From Naegleria gruberi (taxonomy: Eukaryota), in the NCBI GenBank assembly GCA_000004985.1, contig GG738881.1: a stretch of 64,000 nt of DNA; one strand, given 5' to 3'. The notes under the pieces are model-generated. The model did not search any database and had not been told where the DNA came from. It was given only the letters and a program-made list of their open reading frames with translations. Position 1 is the first letter of the stretch. Every line of letters starts with the position of its first letter. This document shows, piece by piece, positions 9,005 to 44,392 of this stretch. Position numbers and translations under genes: made by a program.

Positions 9005-11546
9005 ATGTCAACTATCTCCGTATCACCTTCTGGTAATCCACAGTTTAATGTTGATCTTTGGAAAAACCGTTTAAATACTCACATGCAATTTTTGATCGCT
9101 ATTGGTCAACAAGTTGACTTGTACTTTGCACCAGACAAATTGCAAGACATGGTTAAATTGTACAACATGATGATTCCTCTCGTTTCCAAACATGGATCAC
9201 AAAATGTTTGGCTTCCAGAGTGTGTACAGTGGATTTTCCATTGCCACTTGTTGCATCCTATCGATTTCATGAAGGATTGCGAGTCAAACTTTGGACATTT
9301 GATTTTGTACAATACTCAAGCTCACATGTTAAATTCTGAACAAACAATGAAATGGTTTGAAGAGATGCACCAAGTCAATTTTGAAAATTGTTTGGATCAT
9401 TATGATGAATTGATTGCAAGAGAGAATTCAACTGTTTTCAAGCCATCAAGAGATTTGATTAAGGCTGCTCTCAACCAAAAGACTTTTACCACTCAATGTA
9501 AGCAAGTTTTTGGTGAATCTATTGAAAGCTCCACCCAAATTCAATACATGCTCGACAAGTACTTCAAGTTTATTGTGGCTATCAAGTCAATCATGATTAA
9601 GAGTGATGAACAGAGCTCTGAATTGGAATTCATGTTGGTTCCTACATTGGAAATTGATTTGGTTTGGCATACCCATTTGAGATATCCATATGATTACTTG
9701 ACATTTGTTAAGGAACAAACTGGTTATTTATTGAACCACGAAGATGATTTGGATTCTTTGGATGAAGAATTTGAAATGACCAAAACTTTCTGGAAGAAAC
9801 AATTCAATGAAGATTACGTGAGAACTAACCAACCAGTTGAAAATTCCATGACCCAAAAGGGAGAATGTTGCAATGTTGCCAAGGAAAATATGAATATTGA
9901 AGTATTGTCAACTGAATCCATGACTCAAAAGGGTGATTGTTGTAACATTGCCAAGCAAAACTCCTCTCAACAAATCATTCCAGTAATGAATCAAAAGGGA
10001 GAATGTTGTAATTTAGCCAAACAAAATGTAAATATGCCAATTCTCCAACCATCAATGACTCAAAAAGGTGATTGTTGTAACATTGCTAAGGATAACATCA
10101 ACAGTGAAATTCCAACTCTTGCCATGAATCAAAAGGGAGAATGTTGCAATGTTGCCAAGCAAAACCTCAATGGTGAAGTGCTTCCACCTTCTATGAATCA
10201 AAAAGGAGAGTGTTGTAATGTTGCAAAGATGAATTTGAACGAACCAGTTCTTCAACCATCAATGACTCAAAAGGGAGAATGCTGTAACGTAGCCAAACAA
10301 AATATTGATAAAGAAGTCCTTCCAGTCGGTATGAATCAAAAGGGTGAATGTTGCAATGTAGCTAAACACAACCTTAATGAACCAGTTCTCCAACTTTCCA
10401 TGAATCAAAAGGGAGAGTGTTGTAATGTTGCCAAGAATAATCTTAATGGACCAGTTCTTCAACCATCAATGACCCAAAAGGGTGATTGTTGTAACATTGC
10501 CAAGGATAACGTTAATCGGGAAATTCCAACTCTTGGAATGAATCAAAAGGGAGAATGTTGCAATGTTGCCAAGATGAATTTGAACGAGCCAGTTCTCCAA
10601 CCTGCCATGACCCAAAAGGGTGATTGTTGCAACATTGCCAAACACAATGTTGATATGGAAATTCCAACTCTTGGAATGAATCAAAAAGGTGATTGTTGCA
10701 ATGTAGCCAAACAAAATATTGATAAGGAAGTTCTTCCAGTCGGTATGAATCAAAAGGGTGATTGTTGCAATATTGCCAAGGACAATATCAATCGTGAAAT
10801 TCCAATTCTTGGAATGAATCAAAAGGGAGAATGCTGCAATGTAGCTAAACACAATTTGAACGAACCAGTTCTCCAACTTTCCATGAATCAAAAGGGAGAG
10901 TGTTGTAATGTTGCCAAGACGAACTTTGAACGAGCCAGTTCTCCAACCTGCAATGACCCAAAAGGGAGATTGCTGCAACATTGCCAAACACAATGTTGAT
11001 ATGGAAATTCCATCTCTTGGAATGAATCAAAAAGGTGATTGTTGCAATGTAGCCAAACAAAATATTGATAAGGAAGTCCTTCCAGTTGGTATGAATCAAA
11101 AGGGTGAATGTTGCAATGTTGCCAAACACAACCTTAATGAACCAGTTCTCCAACTTTCTATGAATCAAAAAGGAGAGTGTTGTAATGTTGCAAAGATGAA
11201 TTTGAACGAACCAGTTCTTCAACCATCAATGACCCAAAAGGGTGATTGCTGTAATATTGCTAAGGATAACATTAACAGTGAAATTCCATCTCTTGGAATG
11301 AATCAAAAAGGTGATTGTTGCAATATTGCCAAGATGAATTTGAATGCTGACATTATTCCACTCATGATGACTCAAAAGGGTGATTGCTGTAATTTGGCCA
11401 AGCAAAATGAAATGTTGCCAATTCTCGATCTTGGAATGAATCAAAAAGGAGAATGTTGCAATTTGGCCAAACAAAACGCCACTTGTGTCCTTCTCAGAGT
11501 TGGTCATTTGGAAATTCCAATCCTCAAGCCAGCTTTTGCCTTTTAA
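9005..11546 (+). CDS. Protein with a unique ~275-aa N-terminal domain followed by ~26 tandem 21-aa repeats (consensus MNQKGECCNVAKQNLNEPVLQPS) each carrying a vicinal Cys-Cys. The frame shifts by +1 near 10924, so it is listed as ORF 9005..10999 plus ORF 10908..11546.
   Basis: N-terminal region has no repeats (..LVWHTHLRYPYDYLTFVKEQTGYLLNHEDD..). The repeats start at ~9842. Two subtypes alternate by context (MTQKGDCCNIAK after ..LQPS/A; MNQKGECCNVAK after ..TLG/PVG/LQLS). Variability is concentrated in repeat residues 13-21. The C-terminus after the array is ..LRVGHLEIPILKPAFAF. Minus-strand ORFs 10052..11507 are antisense artefacts of the same repeats. Confidence 0.65.
9842..11480. repeat. 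Tandem array with a 63-bp period, about 26 copies, highly homogenised. It contains a near-identical internal block duplication (~10571..10918 vs ~10921..11215).
   Basis: Recurrent units atgaatcaaaagggagaatgttgcaatgttgccaag... are visible directly in the sequence. The two blocks differ by a few substitutions and one indel. Confidence 0.85.
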
Positions 11547-12146
11547 TTCTTAATAAACATTAAACCTATTTTGTGGCTTTCTTTATTGGGTTTTAGTTAT
11601 TGATAAAATCAATTTTGTAAACCATGTGGAGCCACGTGGAAGCAACGAAAGAGAAAGTTGGATGATGGCACTTCAACCAAGTCTGGAAATTCAGCTGCCT
11701 ATGTCCATTAACTTCATTCCAATTATTGCATTTAACAAATCAAATTGTTTGCTTAATAAATCTATAAAACGGCAGTTGGATATTAAAGAGATAAAACGTT
11801 GATGATCCATTCTACAGAATTTAATAATTGCCTTAATAGTAGCATTCCATCATCAAACCTTGAGCTTCAATCCACAATGAAACTTTCAATTCTTCCTTCC
11901 ACACACTCTCAATATTTTCTGCTCGTTCGGACCTTTTTAACAAATTAATAAATTCATCCATCAAAAAAAAATCCAAAACTTGCGCTTCGCATTCATTCAC
12001 CACTTGCTTTTTTTTTTCTGAAATTTAAAGTGACGGTTGGAGAAGGTTACAAGGGCCTTGCAATTTTAAAGTTCAGATAATCTTCTGTAATAGAAGTAAT
12101 TATTGTAGATTATTGATTTTTTATTGAAGAAGAATAAGGAGATCAA

Positions 12147-19884: not shown

Positions 19885-22800
19885 ATGTCGAATCAACATA
19901 GGAGACCAACATCTTCTTTTCAATTACATGAGGACTCTTATGAACCGAGCTGGAGTCAACAATTTAGTCACAGTACGAGGACTTTTAGACAAACGGATGA
20001 TTATTTAAATGATGTATATCCAAAACGACCAAATTCACAAACATACTTGGACAAAATTCGAGAAAAGAAAAGAAACACTGTTCTTTCAGATCCCACTGTT
20101 TGGGCAAAAGAAACAAGGGATCTCCTCAAAAAGGATATGAGTATTCCTTTACCAAGGAAAATTAAAAGAAGAAATGTTGGAGGAATACCCACCAATACAA
20201 TTGGCAGAAGGATTAAGGGCAATTTGTACAAACAAGCCCCAATACTACCAAAGGAAAACCAATTAAATCCAGCCCTTCCTCTTCCACCAATAGCAGAATC
20301 AGAGTTGGATAAGGGTTTAATTAATTTAATTAATAGAAAGTTGGTACCATCATTCATTGATTTGTCACCACTTGTAAATAACGACGAGAATTCACCAATA
20401 ACTGCTTCACAAGCTGTTTTAAATCCCTATCACTATCAATTAGTTAAGAAGAATGTACAAACGGAGGATACTGCAAACTCACATCTTTATAGAATGGAGA
20501 GTGGTCCACCAAGCCCGGAAAGAGAAATACCCTACACCACCAGATCAAATCCAACAACAAGGAAAAAGGAACCCTCAATAGTTCCATTCGGAAATCAAAA
20601 AATTTACAATCTCAAATCAAAAGATGCCACCGTTTATATGCCTAAAAATTATATTCAACAACCAATTGATTCAGTTCTTGATCCAACTGAGGAACAACGT
20701 ATCAACTCATTGCTTGAGGCAACAAATGATAGAAAAAAGCAACAATATTTGAGAACCTATATTGACCTTATGGATGAATACAGTTTGCATCATGTTATTA
20801 TACGTCATGGATCATTACTGGATAATACTCCAGAATATTTGTCATTCTATAGAACTTATCAATATAACTGGAGTAGAATTTATAGCGTTCTTTCCCTATT
20901 GGAAAAACTACTTCGAGACTTTACAGTTCCTCTGGCTTACGTAGATGGTAAGAAAGTTGTTTTCTTAGCTGAAAGAACTATAGATCCGAATAATAGACAA
21001 TTGATTGATTGTTTGGTTAATGCTGAAAATGTAATTCCTTACATAAAACTTCCAGATGTTAAATTCATGGGAAGAAATGGGCAGAATAATGCAGCAACAT
21101 GTATTCAGAGAATTTGGAAAGGTTATATACAAAGAAAAAGGTTTTCAAGACTCAAGTACGAACATAAAATGGCCACAAGAATTCAATTTTGGTGGTTCCT
21201 TAGAGTTAGATTATTCAGGACCAAAGAAAAAATTCAGAAAATTATACACGACGAGGAATTCAAATGGAAATCAAAGATGGATGAATTCAAAAAGAATTGG
21301 GATACCATTAAGAAATCAAAGAGGACAATTATTCACATCAATTCTCTTACATATGATGAATCTGTAAGAACAACAACTCCAAAATTCAAATCATCCCAAA
21401 ATTCTCAACTCTTCAGAATTTTGGATTTATTGGATCCAAATGTAGAAGTAGTATATGTTACATCTGAGCCATTGGATAGTGATGTATTATCATATGTTTG
21501 TAAATTATTGGAATTTGGAGGAGTTGAGGAACCAATGAGAAGACTCAAAGTAATTACACCAGAATCTAATGACAAATATCCAGATTCGACAAGTTTATCA
21601 TCTCTTGTTTATTATTCCCAAAGAACAATGAGGCATTTGCGAACTCTTGTCATGGGTAAGACGGCGTACCTTGTTCCAGGTCAACTCGGAAAAGACGATT
21701 TAAGACTTGCTATCAAACTTCAGTTACCAATTTTAGGATCAGATCCTGTTAACTCTACTATTTATGGAACCAAGTCAGGAAGCAAGAGAATTTTTGCTCA
21801 AGCAGAAGTGAATATGCCTTTTGGAATTTATGATATTTATGAGGAAGAAGACTTGATCTCTAATTTATCGAGGAAACTAATGGAATATCCACAATATTCT
21901 CGTTGGATAATTAAGATAGATAACGAATATGGAGGAAGAGGCCTTGCTTTCTTGGATGTAAACAAACTTTCCTCACTCAAGGAGAAACGAAGAAATGAAC
22001 CAATGTTTGCTGAGAGGTTAAGGGCCAATCTTGCAGAAGAACTGGGAGAATACATGCCGGAGAGATTGAACATTGTATCGAAACATGTGTATCCCCAATG
22101 GCCTGATTTCCTCAAAGCACTTAAAGATTGTGGTGGAGGTGTTATTGAAGCTGTTCCAAACAAGATTATCGGTTCTCCTTCTGTTAATTTGTTCATTGAA
22201 CCCAATGGAGAAGTTAATATTTTATCTGTACAAGAACAGTTAGTCAATTCTCAATATTGCACCATGTCATGCTCTTTCCCTCATTATTCTGCGCCATATG
22301 ACGCACTGAGAGAGGCATCCTTCTCAGTTGGAAGAGTATGTCATTCCAAAAAGATATTCGGTTATGTAACGATAGACTTTGTAATATTTGTTGACGAGAA
22401 GGATTGTGCTAGAATGTGGGCAGTAGATCTAAAGTTAAGACTCACAGACAATGCACTCTCACATAGAATGTTCGAATTGATTACCAAATCAAGATTTGAT
22501 AAGGACAGTGGACAATCTCTGAGCTCTGAAGGCTTAGAGAGCGAAATTAACAATAGAAGCTACATATACAGTGGAATGATGAGAAATCCTGCAATAAGCT
22601 CTTGGCATCACTCTTCCTTCTTCAGCGATTGCAGAGTGAATGGTTTTTCCTTGGACGGATACGGAAAGTTTGGTGTTATTTTCCAACAAGTTGATTCATT
22701 ACTGAGAGGGCAACTTGGTGTTTTATGTATTGGAAAGACTGCACGAGAGACATCTACACTATTCTGCAATTTAGTGAACTATCTAATAAGTTTGATACCT

Positions 22801-22890
22801 AAGGAAGATCGTTTACCAATCGGTTATGATTCCAATCTGAAAATCTTAGAAGAAATTGTTTCAAACCTCGTTCATGGTAGTAATGAATAA
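19885..22890 (+). CDS. IQ-motif protein with a C-terminal ATP-grasp/TTL-like domain (IQCH-like architecture).
   Basis: 1001-aa intronless ORF. Tandem IQ motifs ATCIQRIWKGYIQRKRFSRLKYEHKMATRIQFWWFLRVRLFR. The C-terminal half has ...SRWIIKIDNEYGGRGLAFLD..., resembling the W-I-x-K-P-x(5)-G-x-G-I signature of TTL/ATP-grasp enzymes. Confidence 0.6.
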   Translation: MSNQHRRPTSSFQLHEDSYEPSWSQQFSHSTRTFRQTDDYLNDVYPKRPNSQTYLDKIREKKRNTVLSDPTVWAKETRDLLKKDMSIPLPRKIKRRNVGGIPTNTIGRRIKGNLYKQAPILPKENQLNPALPLPPIAESELDKGLINLINRKLVPSFIDLSPLVNNDENSPITASQAVLNPYHYQLVKKNVQTEDTANSHLYRMESGPPSPEREIPYTTRSNPTTRKKEPSIVPFGNQKIYNLKSKDATVYMPKNYIQQPIDSVLDPTEEQRINSLLEATNDRKKQQYLRTYIDLMDEYSLHHVIIRHGSLLDNTPEYLSFYRTYQYNWSRIYSVLSLLEKLLRDFTVPLAYVDGKKVVFLAERTIDPNNRQLIDCLVNAENVIPYIKLPDVKFMGRNGQNNAATCIQRIWKGYIQRKRFSRLKYEHKMATRIQFWWFLRVRLFRTKEKIQKIIHDEEFKWKSKMDEFKKNWDTIKKSKRTIIHINSLTYDESVRTTTPKFKSSQNSQLFRILDLLDPNVEVVYVTSEPLDSDVLSYVCKLLEFGGVEEPMRRLKVITPESNDKYPDSTSLSSLVYYSQRTMRHLRTLVMGKTAYLVPGQLGKDDLRLAIKLQLPILGSDPVNSTIYGTKSGSKRIFAQAEVNMPFGIYDIYEEEDLISNLSRKLMEYPQYSRWIIKIDNEYGGRGLAFLDVNKLSSLKEKRRNEPMFAERLRANLAEELGEYMPERLNIVSKHVYPQWPDFLKALKDCGGGVIEAVPNKIIGSPSVNLFIEPNGEVNILSVQEQLVNSQYCTMSCSFPHYSAPYDALREASFSVGRVCHSKKIFGYVTIDFVIFVDEKDCARMWAVDLKLRLTDNALSHRMFELITKSRFDKDSGQSLSSEGLESEINNRSYIYSGMMRNPAISSWHHSSFFSDCRVNGFSLDGYGKFGVIFQQVDSLLRGQLGVLCIGKTARETSTLFCNLVNYLISLIPKEDRLPIGYDSNLKILEEIVSNLVHGSNE

Positions 22891-31446: not shown

Positions 31447-33195
31447 GAAGAAAAGAACGAGATTTCCAGGTCCCACAGTTGGACCTGGAAGTTCTCTAAC
31501 TTTTTCACTTGGATTTGATTCATTGTTGAGAGTGATGATTTCATAGAATTGTAATATACGAGACAAGATGGTGAATGCTTCCTGTTATGGAGAAAAATAC
31601 TATGAGATTATTTTAAAGATTCTACTTACATATTGAGCGAATTTGTAACCCTTTAGAATAAATTGTAAATGAAATGATTCGAATTTTAAGAATTACTTAC
31701 AATACCTAAAATGGAATATTGGTAAAATAATGATGATATATTAACAAAACTTACATTTTCTTTGACCCATTGAAAATGGAATCCATGTGAAATCGGTGTG
31801 AGTCTTTTGACGTTCCTCAAAATCAGATGAAAAGCGTTCAGGAATGAAATCTGATGGCTCTGTCCAATTATTTTCATTGGCATGTGATCCAAACAAATCA
31901 ATTGCAACAATTGTTCCTTTTGGAATGTTGTACTTTCCAATGGTGGTAGATTTCTTTGCTACTCTAAAGTTTGCAAGAACAGGTGGATGCAAACGCAAAC
32001 CTTCCATGATGCATTGATTGAGATAGTTCAATTTAGGGAAATCATCATAGGTTGGGTTTCTTCTTGATTCACCAACTCCAAGAATAGAATCAATTTCTTC
32101 ACGAGCTTTTTGTTGAATATCAGGTCTCTTTCCCAACTCGTAACAAATCCATTGTAATGTAGTTGAAGTTGTCTAAAATTTCAAATAAAAAGTTCATTAC
32201 AAAATTGTTAAACTCTAAAAAAACCCACCTCATGTCTATTTCAATAAATTAGGACAAATAGTTTTAAAATTCGAATACAAACCCAGCAAGCGAAAAGATG
32301 AATGCATCTGACTTGATCTCATTATCTGTCAATACCCCTTTTTGAACTAAATTGGCTTCAATTAAACAACTCAATAAATCTCTTCTGTTCATTCTTTCTC
32401 CTGAACTTCCAAATTGTTTTTCAATTTCATGTTTTCTTTCCTTGATAGCTTTTCCAAACTAGTTCTGAATTTACTTCCATTACTGGCAATTTCAGAATCA
32501 GAAGACTTTTCAAATATTCCAAAATCCAAATCAAATCCAACACGTCCCAAAATGCTCAATGTAATATCACTGAAATCACTCTTGATATCTCTTGTTAAAT
32601 ATCCCTTAACAGTTTTTCCTCCAATTTCCAACTCTTGTTCCTTTTTTCCCCATCGAGTAGAGAACAATTCATCAACACACTCTGACGAATATTCACACAA
32701 ATACTCCAAATTTTGAGATGTAAAGGCAGGCGAGCAAATTTGGTGATGACTTTTCCATGAACTTGAATTGGCATCCAAAATGGTCAATAAATTATCACCA
32801 AATGTCTTGAATACTTCGTATGGTCTGAAATATTTGGGAAAATTATTTCCCTTGGTAATGATGACTTCCTTTAACATTTCCTTATTGGAAATATAGACAA
32901 GATTTCTATCCATGAGTGAAACTCTTGTAATTCCATTCTCTAAATCTCCCTTCTTTCTCATCAAATCTAAAATTGCATGATGATTATTGACAAACATGTA
33001 TTCGGAAAAGAATGGAATTCTCCAAAAGAAACTCATGACTTGCCATCCACCTGGAATGTGTGAAACTTTTTGATAATTTAAATAAATTTTAATGGCAACA
33101 TAGCACAGAATGGTCAGTAGTGTGATCACTGTGAGAGTCAATATCATTGTATTTTTTTCTGATGATGTCTTTGACGTTTGTGAAATGATGATCAA
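31447..33195 (-). CDS. Cytochrome P450 monooxygenase, multi-exon (at least 6 exons).
   Basis: N-terminal exon 33195..~32513 has a membrane anchor MILTLTVITLLTILCYVAIKIY and a P450 N-terminal region. A ~73-nt intron follows. Exon ...ERMNRRDLLSCLIEANLVQKGVLTDNEIKSDAFIFSLAGF|GTATTC. Exon TTSTTLQWICYELGKRPDIQQ...EGLRLHPPV (K-helix ExxR)...WIPFSMGQRKC (heme loop FxxGxRxC). Then a putative 5-nt exon at 31701..31705 (see findings), then GYKFAQY. Last exon EAFTILSRILQFYEIITLNNESNPSEKVRELPGPTVGPGNLVLFFNKRKF* ending ~31447. Confidence 0.8.
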
Positions 33196-33310
33196 TATTG
33201 GAGATCACGGCTATTTTGGAATGCTTTCTTGAATGGAATGTTTATTCCAAAATTCAATTCAGGTTCTATTCAGTCACTCAAAATAATTCTGAAGGAATAA
33301 CAATTTACTA

Positions 33311-35458
33311 TTAAATATCATCCAGATCAAGTTCTTCATCATCCAGTCCAAGTAAATCGTCATTGGAAGGAGTTACATGTTGTTGGAATGGTGGTCTTGA
33401 AGATTTGGAGAAAGAGGGAGGTTGAGATGTGAATGGAGGTGAATCTTCAGCATATTCCGAACAAACAGAGGTAAGGTCATCAATATCTCCCAATTTTGAT
33501 TCAAAGTTTTCGAGCTCGTTTCTTATTTGATCTATAGTTGAAAATTCATGAAGTTCTTCATTTCCGAACGACATTAAACAATTCATTGAAGTTTCCAAAG
33601 TGGCAAGAGCATATCCTGCCTCTCCCTTAATTGCGTATTCAGGTAAAAGTTCACTCATCATTTGGAATTTGACAAACAAATCCATAATATTCGACTTGGC
33701 AACAACGTAAATGAAAATTGGAAGCAAATCATCAGCACCAACAATTATTGGTGGTGTAATTCCATGCTCATATCCATACTTTTGATAATAGTCATTGACG
33801 TCTTTTGAAACTTGATTCATAGCTAAACAAATAAAGTCAACCTTCTTGGTAAAGGATGTGGTTTGATCGAATTCTTTGAAAATTGCAATGGTTCTTTCGA
33901 AAGGATACCTCTCCTTCTCCAAAGTAAACTTATCAGGAAGCTTGAGTGCTTGGAGTGTTATTGTTGAGGTACATTTTGAAACCTTATCGTTCATTCTATT
34001 ATTTTCTTCTCCATAAACAAGTAAATATAAGAATAACAACTTGGAATAGATTCCATTTCCCCACATGGTATCCGTAATGGTATCTGATAAAGAATTAAAA
34101 ATGTTAAATCTTTTAAAAACATACCAATAACTATATCTTCATAATTTTGTGAAGGCATTTCCCAATACTTTCCAAAAAGTACCATACTCAATTTGTCAAT
34201 AAATAATTGAATATCATTCACACATTTAGAAATTAATTGTTTTGGATTCAAATCTGGATTGTGAATCATTTTGGAAGGATTACACACCTCTCCAAAATAT
34301 TCATAGAATTTAAGGCAAATTTGGCTTAAAGTGTGTGCCGGATTAGCCAATGTGAATGAAACGTGTTGTCTAATTTTTTGTTCGGTTATAGAATCGACTG
34401 GCATATCAGCCATATCATTTCCAGCAGAGACAGACAAGATTGGATTTAATATTGATGGCTTGGAAACTGTTTCCAGAAAAACTCTGTCCTGTTCTATCAG
34501 TATTGGATCCATATTTTGATAATTAAAGTAGGTATCAATGAATTTCGACCAATGATCCTGTTCCTTCCATCTAAATGTACGTTTCTTATTCTGAATTCGT
34601 TCCAAGAAGGACTCAACATTATTTCTCATTTCTGCTTGTCTAGCTCTTTCTATGCTTGTTTTTATCATTTGTTCTTTCATTTCTGTTAACCTTTGTTTTT
34701 CATATTCCTTTCTTTTCATTTGTAGCTATTTTGTTTAATATCCTAATCTGGTGTAAATTCAAACTTACAGTTTTACTAACGTCTTGCTTGGTTGTGTGAT
34801 TTGTGGCAGTTTGATTTGCACCACTAGAAGATGGAGTATTTGGAGAAGTATGAGAAGTACCTGATGATGGTGATGTAACACTAGTAGTTGGTGGTGGAAC
34901 TGTCGTTGATGCATTGCTTTGTGGAAATAGAGGTTTGCTAGCATGTGCCAATGAATGATTTGGTAATTTGGATCCAGAATTTGTAGGAGAAATGGTAGGA
35001 GGTTTCTTTGTTGGAATATTATTGGTTGATGATGTCGATGAAGGAGGAGAAGAGGATGTTTTGCTATTATTTGAATTAAAACTCGATGATGGAGAAGTAT
35101 TAGCAGTTGTAGTTGTAGCAGTAGTAGTAGAAGTAGTAGTACTATTATTATTGATTGAATTATGTGTCGATTCCTTATTAAACATTGCAGAAAGTGAAGC
35201 AATTCTCTCCATAGACTGTTCCGAATATTTGATTAATTGTATCGATTGATCGGATAATACATGTTGTTGATTAGTAGAACAAGTCTTCATTTCTGCCTGA
35301 ACAAAACTCGATATTTGCTCCATATACTTTAAATAATTGGCTAGTGCCATCCAGTGTTGCTGCTGTTCATCGTGGGTGATGGCCATCATTAGGGTCTTTT
35401 TAATATCATTCACGATGAGAATGGGTGGCGTGGCAGCAGCAGAACTATTGTTCGGCAT
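33311..35458 (-). CDS. VPS9-domain protein (Rab5-family GEF-like) with an S/T-rich linker. Three exons.
   Basis: Exon 1 35458..~34741 ends (...VSKT|GTAAGT). Exon 2 from ~34726 continues LQMKRKEYEKQRL... A third exon joins near 34050. The VPS9 domain is GITPPIIVGADDLLPIFIYVVAKSNIMDLFVKFQMMSELLPEYAIKGEAGYALATLETSMNCLMS. Acidic C-terminus ...LDDEELDLDDI. Confidence 0.75.
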
Positions 35459-43159: not shown

Positions 43160-44392
43160 TTAAAGTTTTCTAATTGAGATACCTCCCACAAAATCGCAAT
43201 ACTTATATGCTGGACTCCAAATTCCACTATCATATTCAGTAGGCAGAACTGTATCACAAACCATTCCCTTTGAAATAACACGAATGGAATCAACTGTTTT
43301 TCCAATATTTGGTAATCTCCAAAAGAGTGATTGAGTTTCACATGGAACAAATGAATCAATGAGAGGAATTTGTTCATTGTGAAGAATAGTTGCCTTTCCT
43401 TGAGAGTTTGGTGCTGAAAGAAGGGCAATTTCCAAATGTAAATTTTGAATGGTTGTTGTGAGAGGGAGATTGGTATCTCTCTTTGTAGAGGATGGTGGTG
43501 CAACACATGGATATTTGACCTTAATGTTAAAATCATTTTCCTTGACAGGTGTCATTGAAACATCTAATGGGAATGCAGCAACTGCAAAGAATGGTTTAAA
43601 ACATGTCTTGTCATCATTTGGCTCTGCATGTTTCCACATGTTACAAAAATCACTGACAGAATATCTGACTGTAGTTGGGTTTCCATCTCTATCCCAAGGA
43701 TCCAACATGATAATATGAGATACTTGATTATTTGATGTTTCGTATCCAACAGCAACTCTATAGTGTCCTGAAGATGTTGGACTATCTTTGAATTTCATTA
43801 AACACATTACAGGAATATCATTCTTCAAAAATTGATTGACCAAACTATCAACCCAACATTTAGTTGTGGTATCTTGTCTGGCTTGTTCACATGGCAACAA
43901 GGTATTTCTATCAGGATAATACAATGTAACCAAACCAGAATGCTCGAAAATATTTGCTGGAATTGATGCAAATGAATTATTTGCCAAACCAAACCAACCA
44001 TTCTTTGGAGAAACTTCTGGAAATTGGATATAATGTTGACTTTGAGGAGTAGAACTAATTGGTGAAAATCTAGCTCCTCTCACAACATCCAAACTCAATG
44101 TTCCTGAATGATTTGAAGTTCTAGCAACATCAATAATAGCTCTCTGATCAATAAACTTTTCTCTATAATAATACGAGAGCACCATATTCAAAGAGGCATC
44201 ACCACATGAATAATCTGTGATTTGATGCAAATATGGCACGTTCATAATTTTGTCTTTGAGTGGCGATATCATCTTCAATTCTGCTCCTCTCACCACCTCC
44301 TGGATTCCGAAGAAGCACACAACAATCATCATGACAATAAATGCATTAATAGGTGCACACCCATCAGAGTGATGACTCACTTTTGGAGACAT
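43160..44392 (-). CDS. Secreted or membrane-anchored C39-like cysteine peptidase domain protein (Peptidase_C39_2-like), intronless, with an extra C-terminal domain.
   Basis: N-terminal hydrophobic leader (INAFIVMMIVVCFFGIQEV). Catalytic Cys context QITDYSCGDASLNMVLSYYY (C39 Q..CG.A.L.M...YY). Catalytic His/Asp context SGHYRVAVGYE...HIIMLDPWDRDG. A further ~200 aa follow with several Cys. Confidence 0.65.
   Translation of the reverse strand: MSPKVSHHSDGCAPINAFIVMMIVVCFFGIQEVVRGAELKMISPLKDKIMNVPYLHQITDYSCGDASLNMVLSYYYREKFIDQRAIIDVARTSNHSGTLSLDVVRGARFSPISSTPQSQHYIQFPEVSPKNGWFGLANNSFASIPANIFEHSGLVTLYYPDRNTLLPCEQARQDTTTKCWVDSLVNQFLKNDIPVMCLMKFKDSPTSSGHYRVAVGYETSNNQVSHIIMLDPWDRDGNPTTVRYSVSDFCNMWKHAEPNDDKTCFKPFFAVAAFPLDVSMTPVKENDFNIKVKYPCVAPPSSTKRDTNLPLTTTIQNLHLEIALLSAPNSQGKATILHNEQIPLIDSFVPCETQSLFWRLPNIGKTVDSIRVISKGMVCDTVLPTEYDSGIWSPAYKYCDFVGGISIRKL

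Follow-up and report, generated by a model that had tools for sequence, protein, structure and literature searches.

We analysed a window of 64,000 nucleotides (nt) from contig GG738881.1 of the Naegleria gruberi assembly GCA_000004985.1; all coordinates given below are positions within this window. Positions 9005-11546 on the plus strand constitute a single protein-coding gene, composed of a GRDP-like domain (DUF1399), 24 tandemly repeated units carrying a Cys-Cys motif and an ancestral C-terminal tail. In the deposited sequence, this gene is distributed over two open reading frames (ORFs), with the frame changing within unit 16, the only unit that is one base longer than expected. The features of the locus, with protein lengths in amino acids (aa), are as follows.

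9005-11546, plus strand: whole inferred gene, 846 codons and a stop when base 10924 is omitted (ORFs 9005..10999 and 10908..11546, corrected translation)
9005-9847, plus strand: non-repetitive N-terminal domain, GRDP-like (DUF1399), with the Pfam match at aa 88-232 (nt 9266-9700)
9848-11504, plus strand: tandem array of 24 units of 23 aa (69 nt), from the unit table and Tandem Repeats Finder (TRF)
10579-10744, plus strand: block A, spanning the later half of unit 11 and units 12-13, identical to block B at 160/166 positions
10862-10919, plus strand: tract identical at 58/58 positions to 10379-10436 (end of unit 8 and first 37 nt of unit 9), ending one base before the patch
10883-10952, plus strand: unit 16, the sole 70-nt unit, where the frame changes (unit table, alignment, stop-codon map)
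10920-10924, plus strand: 5-nt patch CGAAC, defined by alignment with unit 11 and present in no other unit
10925-11090, plus strand: block B, spanning the later half of unit 16 and units 17-18, starting directly after the extra base
10953-11546, plus strand: units 17-24, 13-aa tail and stop, intact in frame +1
10997-10999, plus strand: frame-0 stop TGA, 25 codons past the extra base, ending a 664-aa product
11156-11233, plus strand: 78-nt tract, an exact match to 10189-10266 (unit 6 with flanks) at an offset of 967 = 14x69+1
11436-11543, plus strand: last unit and C-terminal tail (QKGECCNLAKQNATCVLLRV...), aligning with the single C-terminal Cys tail of P0164, the closest relative found

The N-terminal domain matches PF07173 (GRDP-like) at aa 88-232 with a score of 41.1 bits against a cut-off of 22.7, and has in common with the family the conserved His motifs FHCH and WHTH. 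Across the 44 sequences compared, H81 and H222 never vary and H224 almost never does, and among the five closest H79 does not vary either. By the Pfam threshold and the His motifs, the gene belongs to the GRDP-like/DUF1399 family. The AlphaFold model of the domain is all-alpha, with a predicted local distance difference test score (pLDDT) of 92. A fold search of the PDB with this model yielded no significant match and, therefore, no function could be transferred. The plant proteins GRDP1 and GRDP2 combine DUF1399 with a glycine-rich C-terminal region (PMC4299439). The Naegleria protein resembles them in having the same N-terminal Pfam domain followed by a C-terminal region that is low-complexity or repetitive, but no plant-type glycine-rich region was found in its C-terminal part, which instead consists of the 24-fold 23-aa Cys-Cys repeat, and its host is a heterolobosean amoeba.

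In homology searches, neither the 846-codon gene nor the 664-aa ORF as deposited had a counterpart in the annotated N. gruberi proteome, and no orthologue was found among the annotated proteins of N. fowleri and Willaertia. The search with the frame-corrected protein returned one distant fungal GRDP match and no Naegleria orthologue, and exact-protein look-ups of both ORFs and of three neighbouring proteins in the assembly collection returned no record. The gene appears to be unannotated and lineage-restricted. An 846-codon gene with a recognizable domain is, accordingly, absent from the N. gruberi gene catalogue, and any gene model proposed here must choose how to treat base 10924. The gene also provides a small lead on the uncharacterized DUF1399/GRDP-like domain.

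Each unit of the array conforms to M[NT]QKG[DE]CCN[VIL]AK followed by a variable half of 11 aa. TRF detected periods of 69 and 138 nt across the ~1.66 kb of the array; the longer one is a super-period produced by two unit subtypes, MNQKGECCNVAK..NLNEPVLQPS-like and MTQKGDCCNIAKDNINSEIPTLG-like, which mostly alternate between 9854 and 11196. When units are anchored on their starts, each of units 3-24 spans 69 nt, save unit 16 with 70 nt. Pairwise identity between units is mostly only 60-90%, and against this background the array contains perfectly identical tracts of 78 nt (11156-11233), 64 nt (10668-10731 = 11014-11077) and 58 nt (10862-10919), a pattern characteristic of gene conversion or unequal exchange that took place recently within the array.

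The irregularity in unit 16 lies within the 21-mer aagacgaactttgaacgagcc at 10916-10936. Compared with its closest relative, unit 11 (aagatgaatttgaacgagcc, 10571-10590), unit 16 carries a T>C change at 10920 and an extra C at 10924, and around the patch the deposited 70-nt form reads ...AAGACGAACTTTGAAC... The substitution converts ATG into ACG (Met>Thr), a codon that the gene uses nowhere else; among the ORFs of the window, ACG is the rarest Thr codon (2.2 per 1000), and CGA is fairly rare (4.8 per 1000). The patch can be described equally well as AAT>AAC plus one extra T in the T run at 10925-10927. The initial annotation had noticed this combination of a 1-bp insertion and a substitution near 10921-10930, and the alignment bears it out. 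By contrast, the 20-mer that it quoted as common to all other copies occurs exactly only in unit 11, and with one mismatch in units 6 and 20; the other 20 of the 23 units differ from it.

The stop-codon map reveals a clean swap of frames at unit 16. Frame 0 is open over 9005-10996 and thereafter has stops in every unit, whereas frame +1 is interrupted by a TGA at the start of each unit (ATGA) as far as 10884 and remains open from there to the stop at 11544; both frames are open over 10887-10996. The predicted move of the array from ORF 9005..10999 into ORF 10908..11546 is thus confirmed, and the second part of the array (units 17-24 with the tail, 10953-11546) is indeed out of frame with the first. 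Exact repeats with copies on opposite sides of the site are offset by 967 and 346 nt, both of the form 69k+1, whereas the offsets of those that do not bridge it are all multiples of 69. There is, therefore, exactly one register break, that is, one extra base, in the whole array. As deposited, frame 0 encodes a product of 664 aa with the whole N-terminal domain, 15.5 units and a 25-aa out-of-frame tail (tail peptide ASSPTCNDPK), and the term 'disabling', which had been applied to the indel, is too strong for a product that retains this much.

The part of the array downstream of the extra base retains the properties of coding sequence. The 12-residue motif is preserved in all eight downstream units, and frame +1 runs for 219 codons without a stop in sequence of 34% G+C. 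Between units 17-20 and their nearest upstream units, seven synonymous changes and a single conservative (Thr/Ser) replacement were observed; the identical differences read in the other two frames give synonymous to non-synonymous ratios of 0:7 and 1:6, and only 19-25% of random substitutions in these units are expected to be synonymous. If the downstream part had been neutral since the duplication, with the upstream part constrained, one or no non-synonymous change among eight would be found with P = 0.004-0.03. These observations show that the downstream part is translated in continuity with the upstream part now, or was until very recently. A decayed pseudogene, considered as a candidate, is not supported, given the single lesion, the 7:1 changes, the motif in 8/8 units and the 219 stop-free codons. 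We also rejected separate translation of ORF 10908-11546 from its own ATG: this ATG is an accidental out-of-frame AAT-GTT within unit 16, and the ORF lacks the N-terminal domain. Peptides unique to units 21-24 or to the tail, according to the predicted translation, include DNINSEIPSLGMNQK and VGHLEIPILKPAFAF.

The provenance of the C-terminus was assessed by comparison with relatives of the gene. The closest one, P0164, is a protein of 281 aa with 47% identity from JGI sample 3300062347 (locus L054, 8001-8846), and consists of a GRDP-like domain with one tail, KKAECCCTNKNSALCTLIPV..., after which the frame stops; the gene that comes next at the locus is unrelated. In a BLASTP comparison of P0164 with a collapsed N. 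gruberi protein (domain, unit 24 and tail), the alignment extends through the tail QKGECCNLAKQNATCVLLRV and, therefore, the C-terminus encoded in frame +1 is the ancestral end of the protein. The 24 units, in turn, would represent a lineage-specific amplification of the proximal part of the tail. The preserved motif in an open frame, the substitution pattern and the ancestral tail jointly indicate, therefore, that 9005-11546 is one gene of 846 codons. An AATAAA hexamer is located at 11552-11557, 6 nt past the frame +1 stop (11544-11546), a position that fits a natural 3' end at 11546 rather than at 10999, although in an AT-rich genome this is weak evidence.

An exhaustive HMMER search identified a best relative with 48% identity on a truncated metagenome contig of 933 nt. 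HMMER matches to the repeat region, such as P0029, corresponded to unrelated WD-like and other repeat proteins and were set aside. A degenerate DNA pattern for QKG[DE]CCNxAK had no matches in the metagenome contigs, and the related metagenome loci contained only distant GRDP-like genes, none of them with a comparable array.

GRDP-like relatives very often end in Cys-containing tails. P0164 carries a single tail of the KKAECCC... type, and many of the more distant, metagenomic relatives have CGGGGCGG-type Cys/Gly runs at the C-terminus (L003, L006, L009-L014, L021 and L029). The His clusters of the domain together with the Cys tails may hint at a functional link, either metal binding or an action of the domain on its own tail, but this is speculative. 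Equally speculatively, the GRDP-like domain might act on its own Cys tail, here amplified 24-fold, in the manner of an enzyme fused to a multi-core peptide substrate.

The extra base sits at a boundary within the array: the tract identical at 58/58 positions to units 8-9 comes first, then the CGAAC patch that contains the extra base, and then a tract 96% identical to units 11b-13. This agrees with the initial annotation in so far as the indel lies at the junction of near-identical blocks, but the blocks are not ~300 bp long; at the coordinates proposed for them, they align at 259/274 positions with 95 gap columns, and the near-identity in fact covers 166 nt (160/166). Past these 166 nt, the second half becomes mosaic: unit 19 is nearest to unit 8 (66/69), unit 20 is identical to unit 6 (69/69), and unit 14 has no counterpart there. 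No exact repeat is longer than 78 nt, and no block at 96% identity or above is longer than 166 nt.

Blocks A and B differ at six of 166 positions, five of which are synonymous; with ~36 synonymous sites, this corresponds to a synonymous divergence (pS) of ~0.14. Not one motif-breaking change was found at ~200 constrained downstream sites, which limits the neutral divergence since the frameshift to roughly 1.5% or less (95%), with the caveat that conversion from upstream units, which the perfect 58-, 64- and 78-nt tracts show to happen, could mask decay. Comparison of the two values indicates, therefore, that the indel is several-fold younger than the duplication that gave rise to blocks 11-13 and 16-18, and is not its by-product. 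Judged from these counts, the lesion would be much younger than the block duplication, or not real. A very recent duplication, previously proposed as the source of the indel, is not supported, given the six differences, five of them synonymous, and the lack of downstream motif decay. The frameshift is of a well-known kind, being either an indel error or a young allele that truncates a coding tandem repeat, and is ordinary in that it involves no new mechanism.

The reading that we favour, with about an even chance, is that the Sanger draft assembly contains a base-level consensus error at this site and that the organism makes a full-length in-frame protein. The sole published N. gruberi assembly is a Sanger draft of strain NEG-M, comprising 1977 contigs in 784 scaffolds (PMC9928731, PMC6125883), and the strain has been described as heterozygous (PMC9928731; PMC6125883). 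Two routes to such an error can be envisaged. Where coverage was thin, a noisy C signal could have yielded two spurious C calls within 5 nt or, alternatively, both alleles of an AAT/AAC polymorphism could have been retained in the consensus; along either route, the full-length, 846-codon in-frame protein would be produced. The locus resembles known single-base indel errors of Sanger drafts, including those in which both alleles of a heterozygous site entered the consensus, in that there is one isolated extra base with a second discrepancy 4 nt away, the flanks are otherwise perfectly coding, and the Sanger draft derives from a strain described as heterozygous. The two anomalies, 4 nt apart, are both added Cs, one of which produces the rare ACG. 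Because of this proximity and shared identity, the creation of the sole ACG of the gene and the fact that the inserted C duplicates no neighbouring base, we lean slightly, by inference, towards an error over a genuine young allele.

Several considerations weigh against an error. All the sequence-internal observations fit a genuine, very recent frameshift equally well, and the leaning towards an error comes from the deposited consensus. At the observed divergence, chance alone would place a substitution within 4 nt of the indel with a probability of ~0.27. A random miscall does not need to fall at the boundary of repeat tracts, as this site does, and the position of the patch at the end of the 58-nt perfect tract could mark the real end of an imprecise gene conversion. 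Finally, the missing reference gene model could mean that the locus looked broken to annotators, yet this absence is compatible with both possibilities alike.

It is possible, if somewhat doubtful, that the extra base is real and represents a very young frameshift, perhaps heterozygous or specific to the NEG-M clone, which might have arisen where a gene-conversion tract ended. In that case, the 664-aa protein would be made, and units 17-24 would be a relic, untranslated and still undecayed. Coding tandem repeats are unstable, and such an origin is favoured by the location of the patch exactly between the 58/58 tract (10862-10919 = 10379-10436) and the 96% tract of units 11b-13, as well as by the perfect 78- and 64-nt tracts elsewhere in the array, which show ongoing exchange between units. 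The loss of eight of the 24 modular units may be tolerated, and the lack of a gene model in the reference proteome also is in line with a real lesion. However, the frameshift would have to be very recent, given an inferred neutral divergence of less than ~1.5% compared to the ~14% synonymous divergence of the blocks. Furthermore, the inserted C copies no neighbouring base, so that it is not of the slippage type unless two substitutions and a T insertion are invoked, and the protein would lack its ancestral C-terminal tail.

Genes for fungal cell-wall proteins and adhesins contain intragenic tandem repeats of variable number, and changes in that number normally keep the frame. The Naegleria gene is similar to frameshift or truncation alleles of such genes, in that modular coding repeats exchange sequence, as attested by the perfect 58-78-nt tracts, and that a lesion in the array shortens the protein while leaving the N-terminal domain intact. 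It differs from them in that the change is not the usual frame-preserving gain or loss of repeats but the addition of 1 nt. If real, the frameshift would catch a tandem-repeat gene just as it is being truncated, a case of modest population-genetic interest, with a product that is truncated but not necessarily disabled.

The initial annotation had also considered a collapsed or mis-joined assembly, in which case the junction in unit 16 would be an artefact of joining reads from different units. The site does coincide with a change of nearest relative, from units 8-9 on the left to units 11-13 on the right, within an array of 1.66 kb of related units. Nevertheless, this explanation appears improbable: the shared tracts are all in the 69-nt register, so that joins would keep the frame and would not generate a 70-nt unit, the units are mostly only 60-90% identical, and the CGAAC patch is present in no other unit. 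Sanger reads are longer than 166 nt, and both the longest exact repeat (78 nt) and the longest 96% block (166 nt) are shorter than such a read.

Programmed +1 ribosomal frameshifting, by which a real extra base would be bypassed and the full-length protein made, is very unlikely. The overlap of the open frames 0 and +1 at 10887-10996, the coding constraint on the downstream frame and the presence of the rare ACG and fairly rare CGA codons near the site are in line with such a mechanism. The eukaryotic programmed +1 sites include CUU-AGG-C of Ty1 and ABP140, GCG-AGU-U of Ty3, the site of EST3 and UCC-UGA of antizyme. With these sites, the locus has in common two overlapping open frames and an apparently constrained downstream frame, but it lacks a shifty heptamer, a hungry or stop codon in the aminoacyl (A) site and a site-specific stimulator, and no conservation was seen in the relatives found. 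Specifically, the sequence AAG ACG AAC TTT GAA CGA contains no shifty heptamer; re-pairing in the peptidyl (P) site fails for both AAC>ACU and UUU>UUG; and in the A site UUU and GAA are both common codons, hence not slow, and neither is a stop. Moreover, over the next 120 nt the sequence is ~96% identical to that after unit 11, where no shift occurs, and the same hairpins are predicted for both (z-scores of -2.8 and -1.6). The closest relatives carry a single in-frame tail, and the homology searches turned up no orthologue with an array or with a two-frame arrangement. Frameshifting would yield a predicted trans-frame peptide spanning KTN and LNEPVLQPAMTQK. Put more broadly, that an 846-aa protein is made by recoding at unit 16, through +1 frameshifting or some other bypass at a non-canonical site, seems highly doubtful; if true, it would be the first recoding event on record for a heterolobosean and would lie within a coding tandem repeat.

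Least credible of all is a spliceosomal intron of 3n+1 length that spans the site and restores the frame, as, although 67 GT...AG pairs of 3n+1 length leave the ORF open and one candidate (10758-11034, 277 nt = 4x69+1) keeps the repeat register perfectly, such pairs are a consequence of the repetition itself, the interior of the candidate consists of intact units with almost exclusively synonymous differences, and no other unit is interrupted.

The window as a whole has a G+C content of 34%, and no tRNA genes were found in it. The domains encoded by its other ORFs are eukaryotic and include those of a hybrid histidine kinase, a prominin-like protein, an IQCH-like ATP-grasp protein and homeobox proteins. 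ORF 19885-22887 corresponds to NAEGRDRAFT_69956 of Naegleria gruberi (100% over the full length), followed by homologues from N. fowleri (68%) and Willaertia (47%), which identifies the window as nuclear DNA of N. gruberi. Four consecutive ORFs, some of them overlapping, are located on the minus strand at 32389-35458, the first one with an N-terminal P450 match; these are probably either exons split by short introns or tandem genes. Finally, ORF 43160-44392 on the minus strand displays a Peptidase_C39_2/AvrRpt2-like papain-fold match, a domain known mostly from bacteria, and possibly was acquired horizontally.

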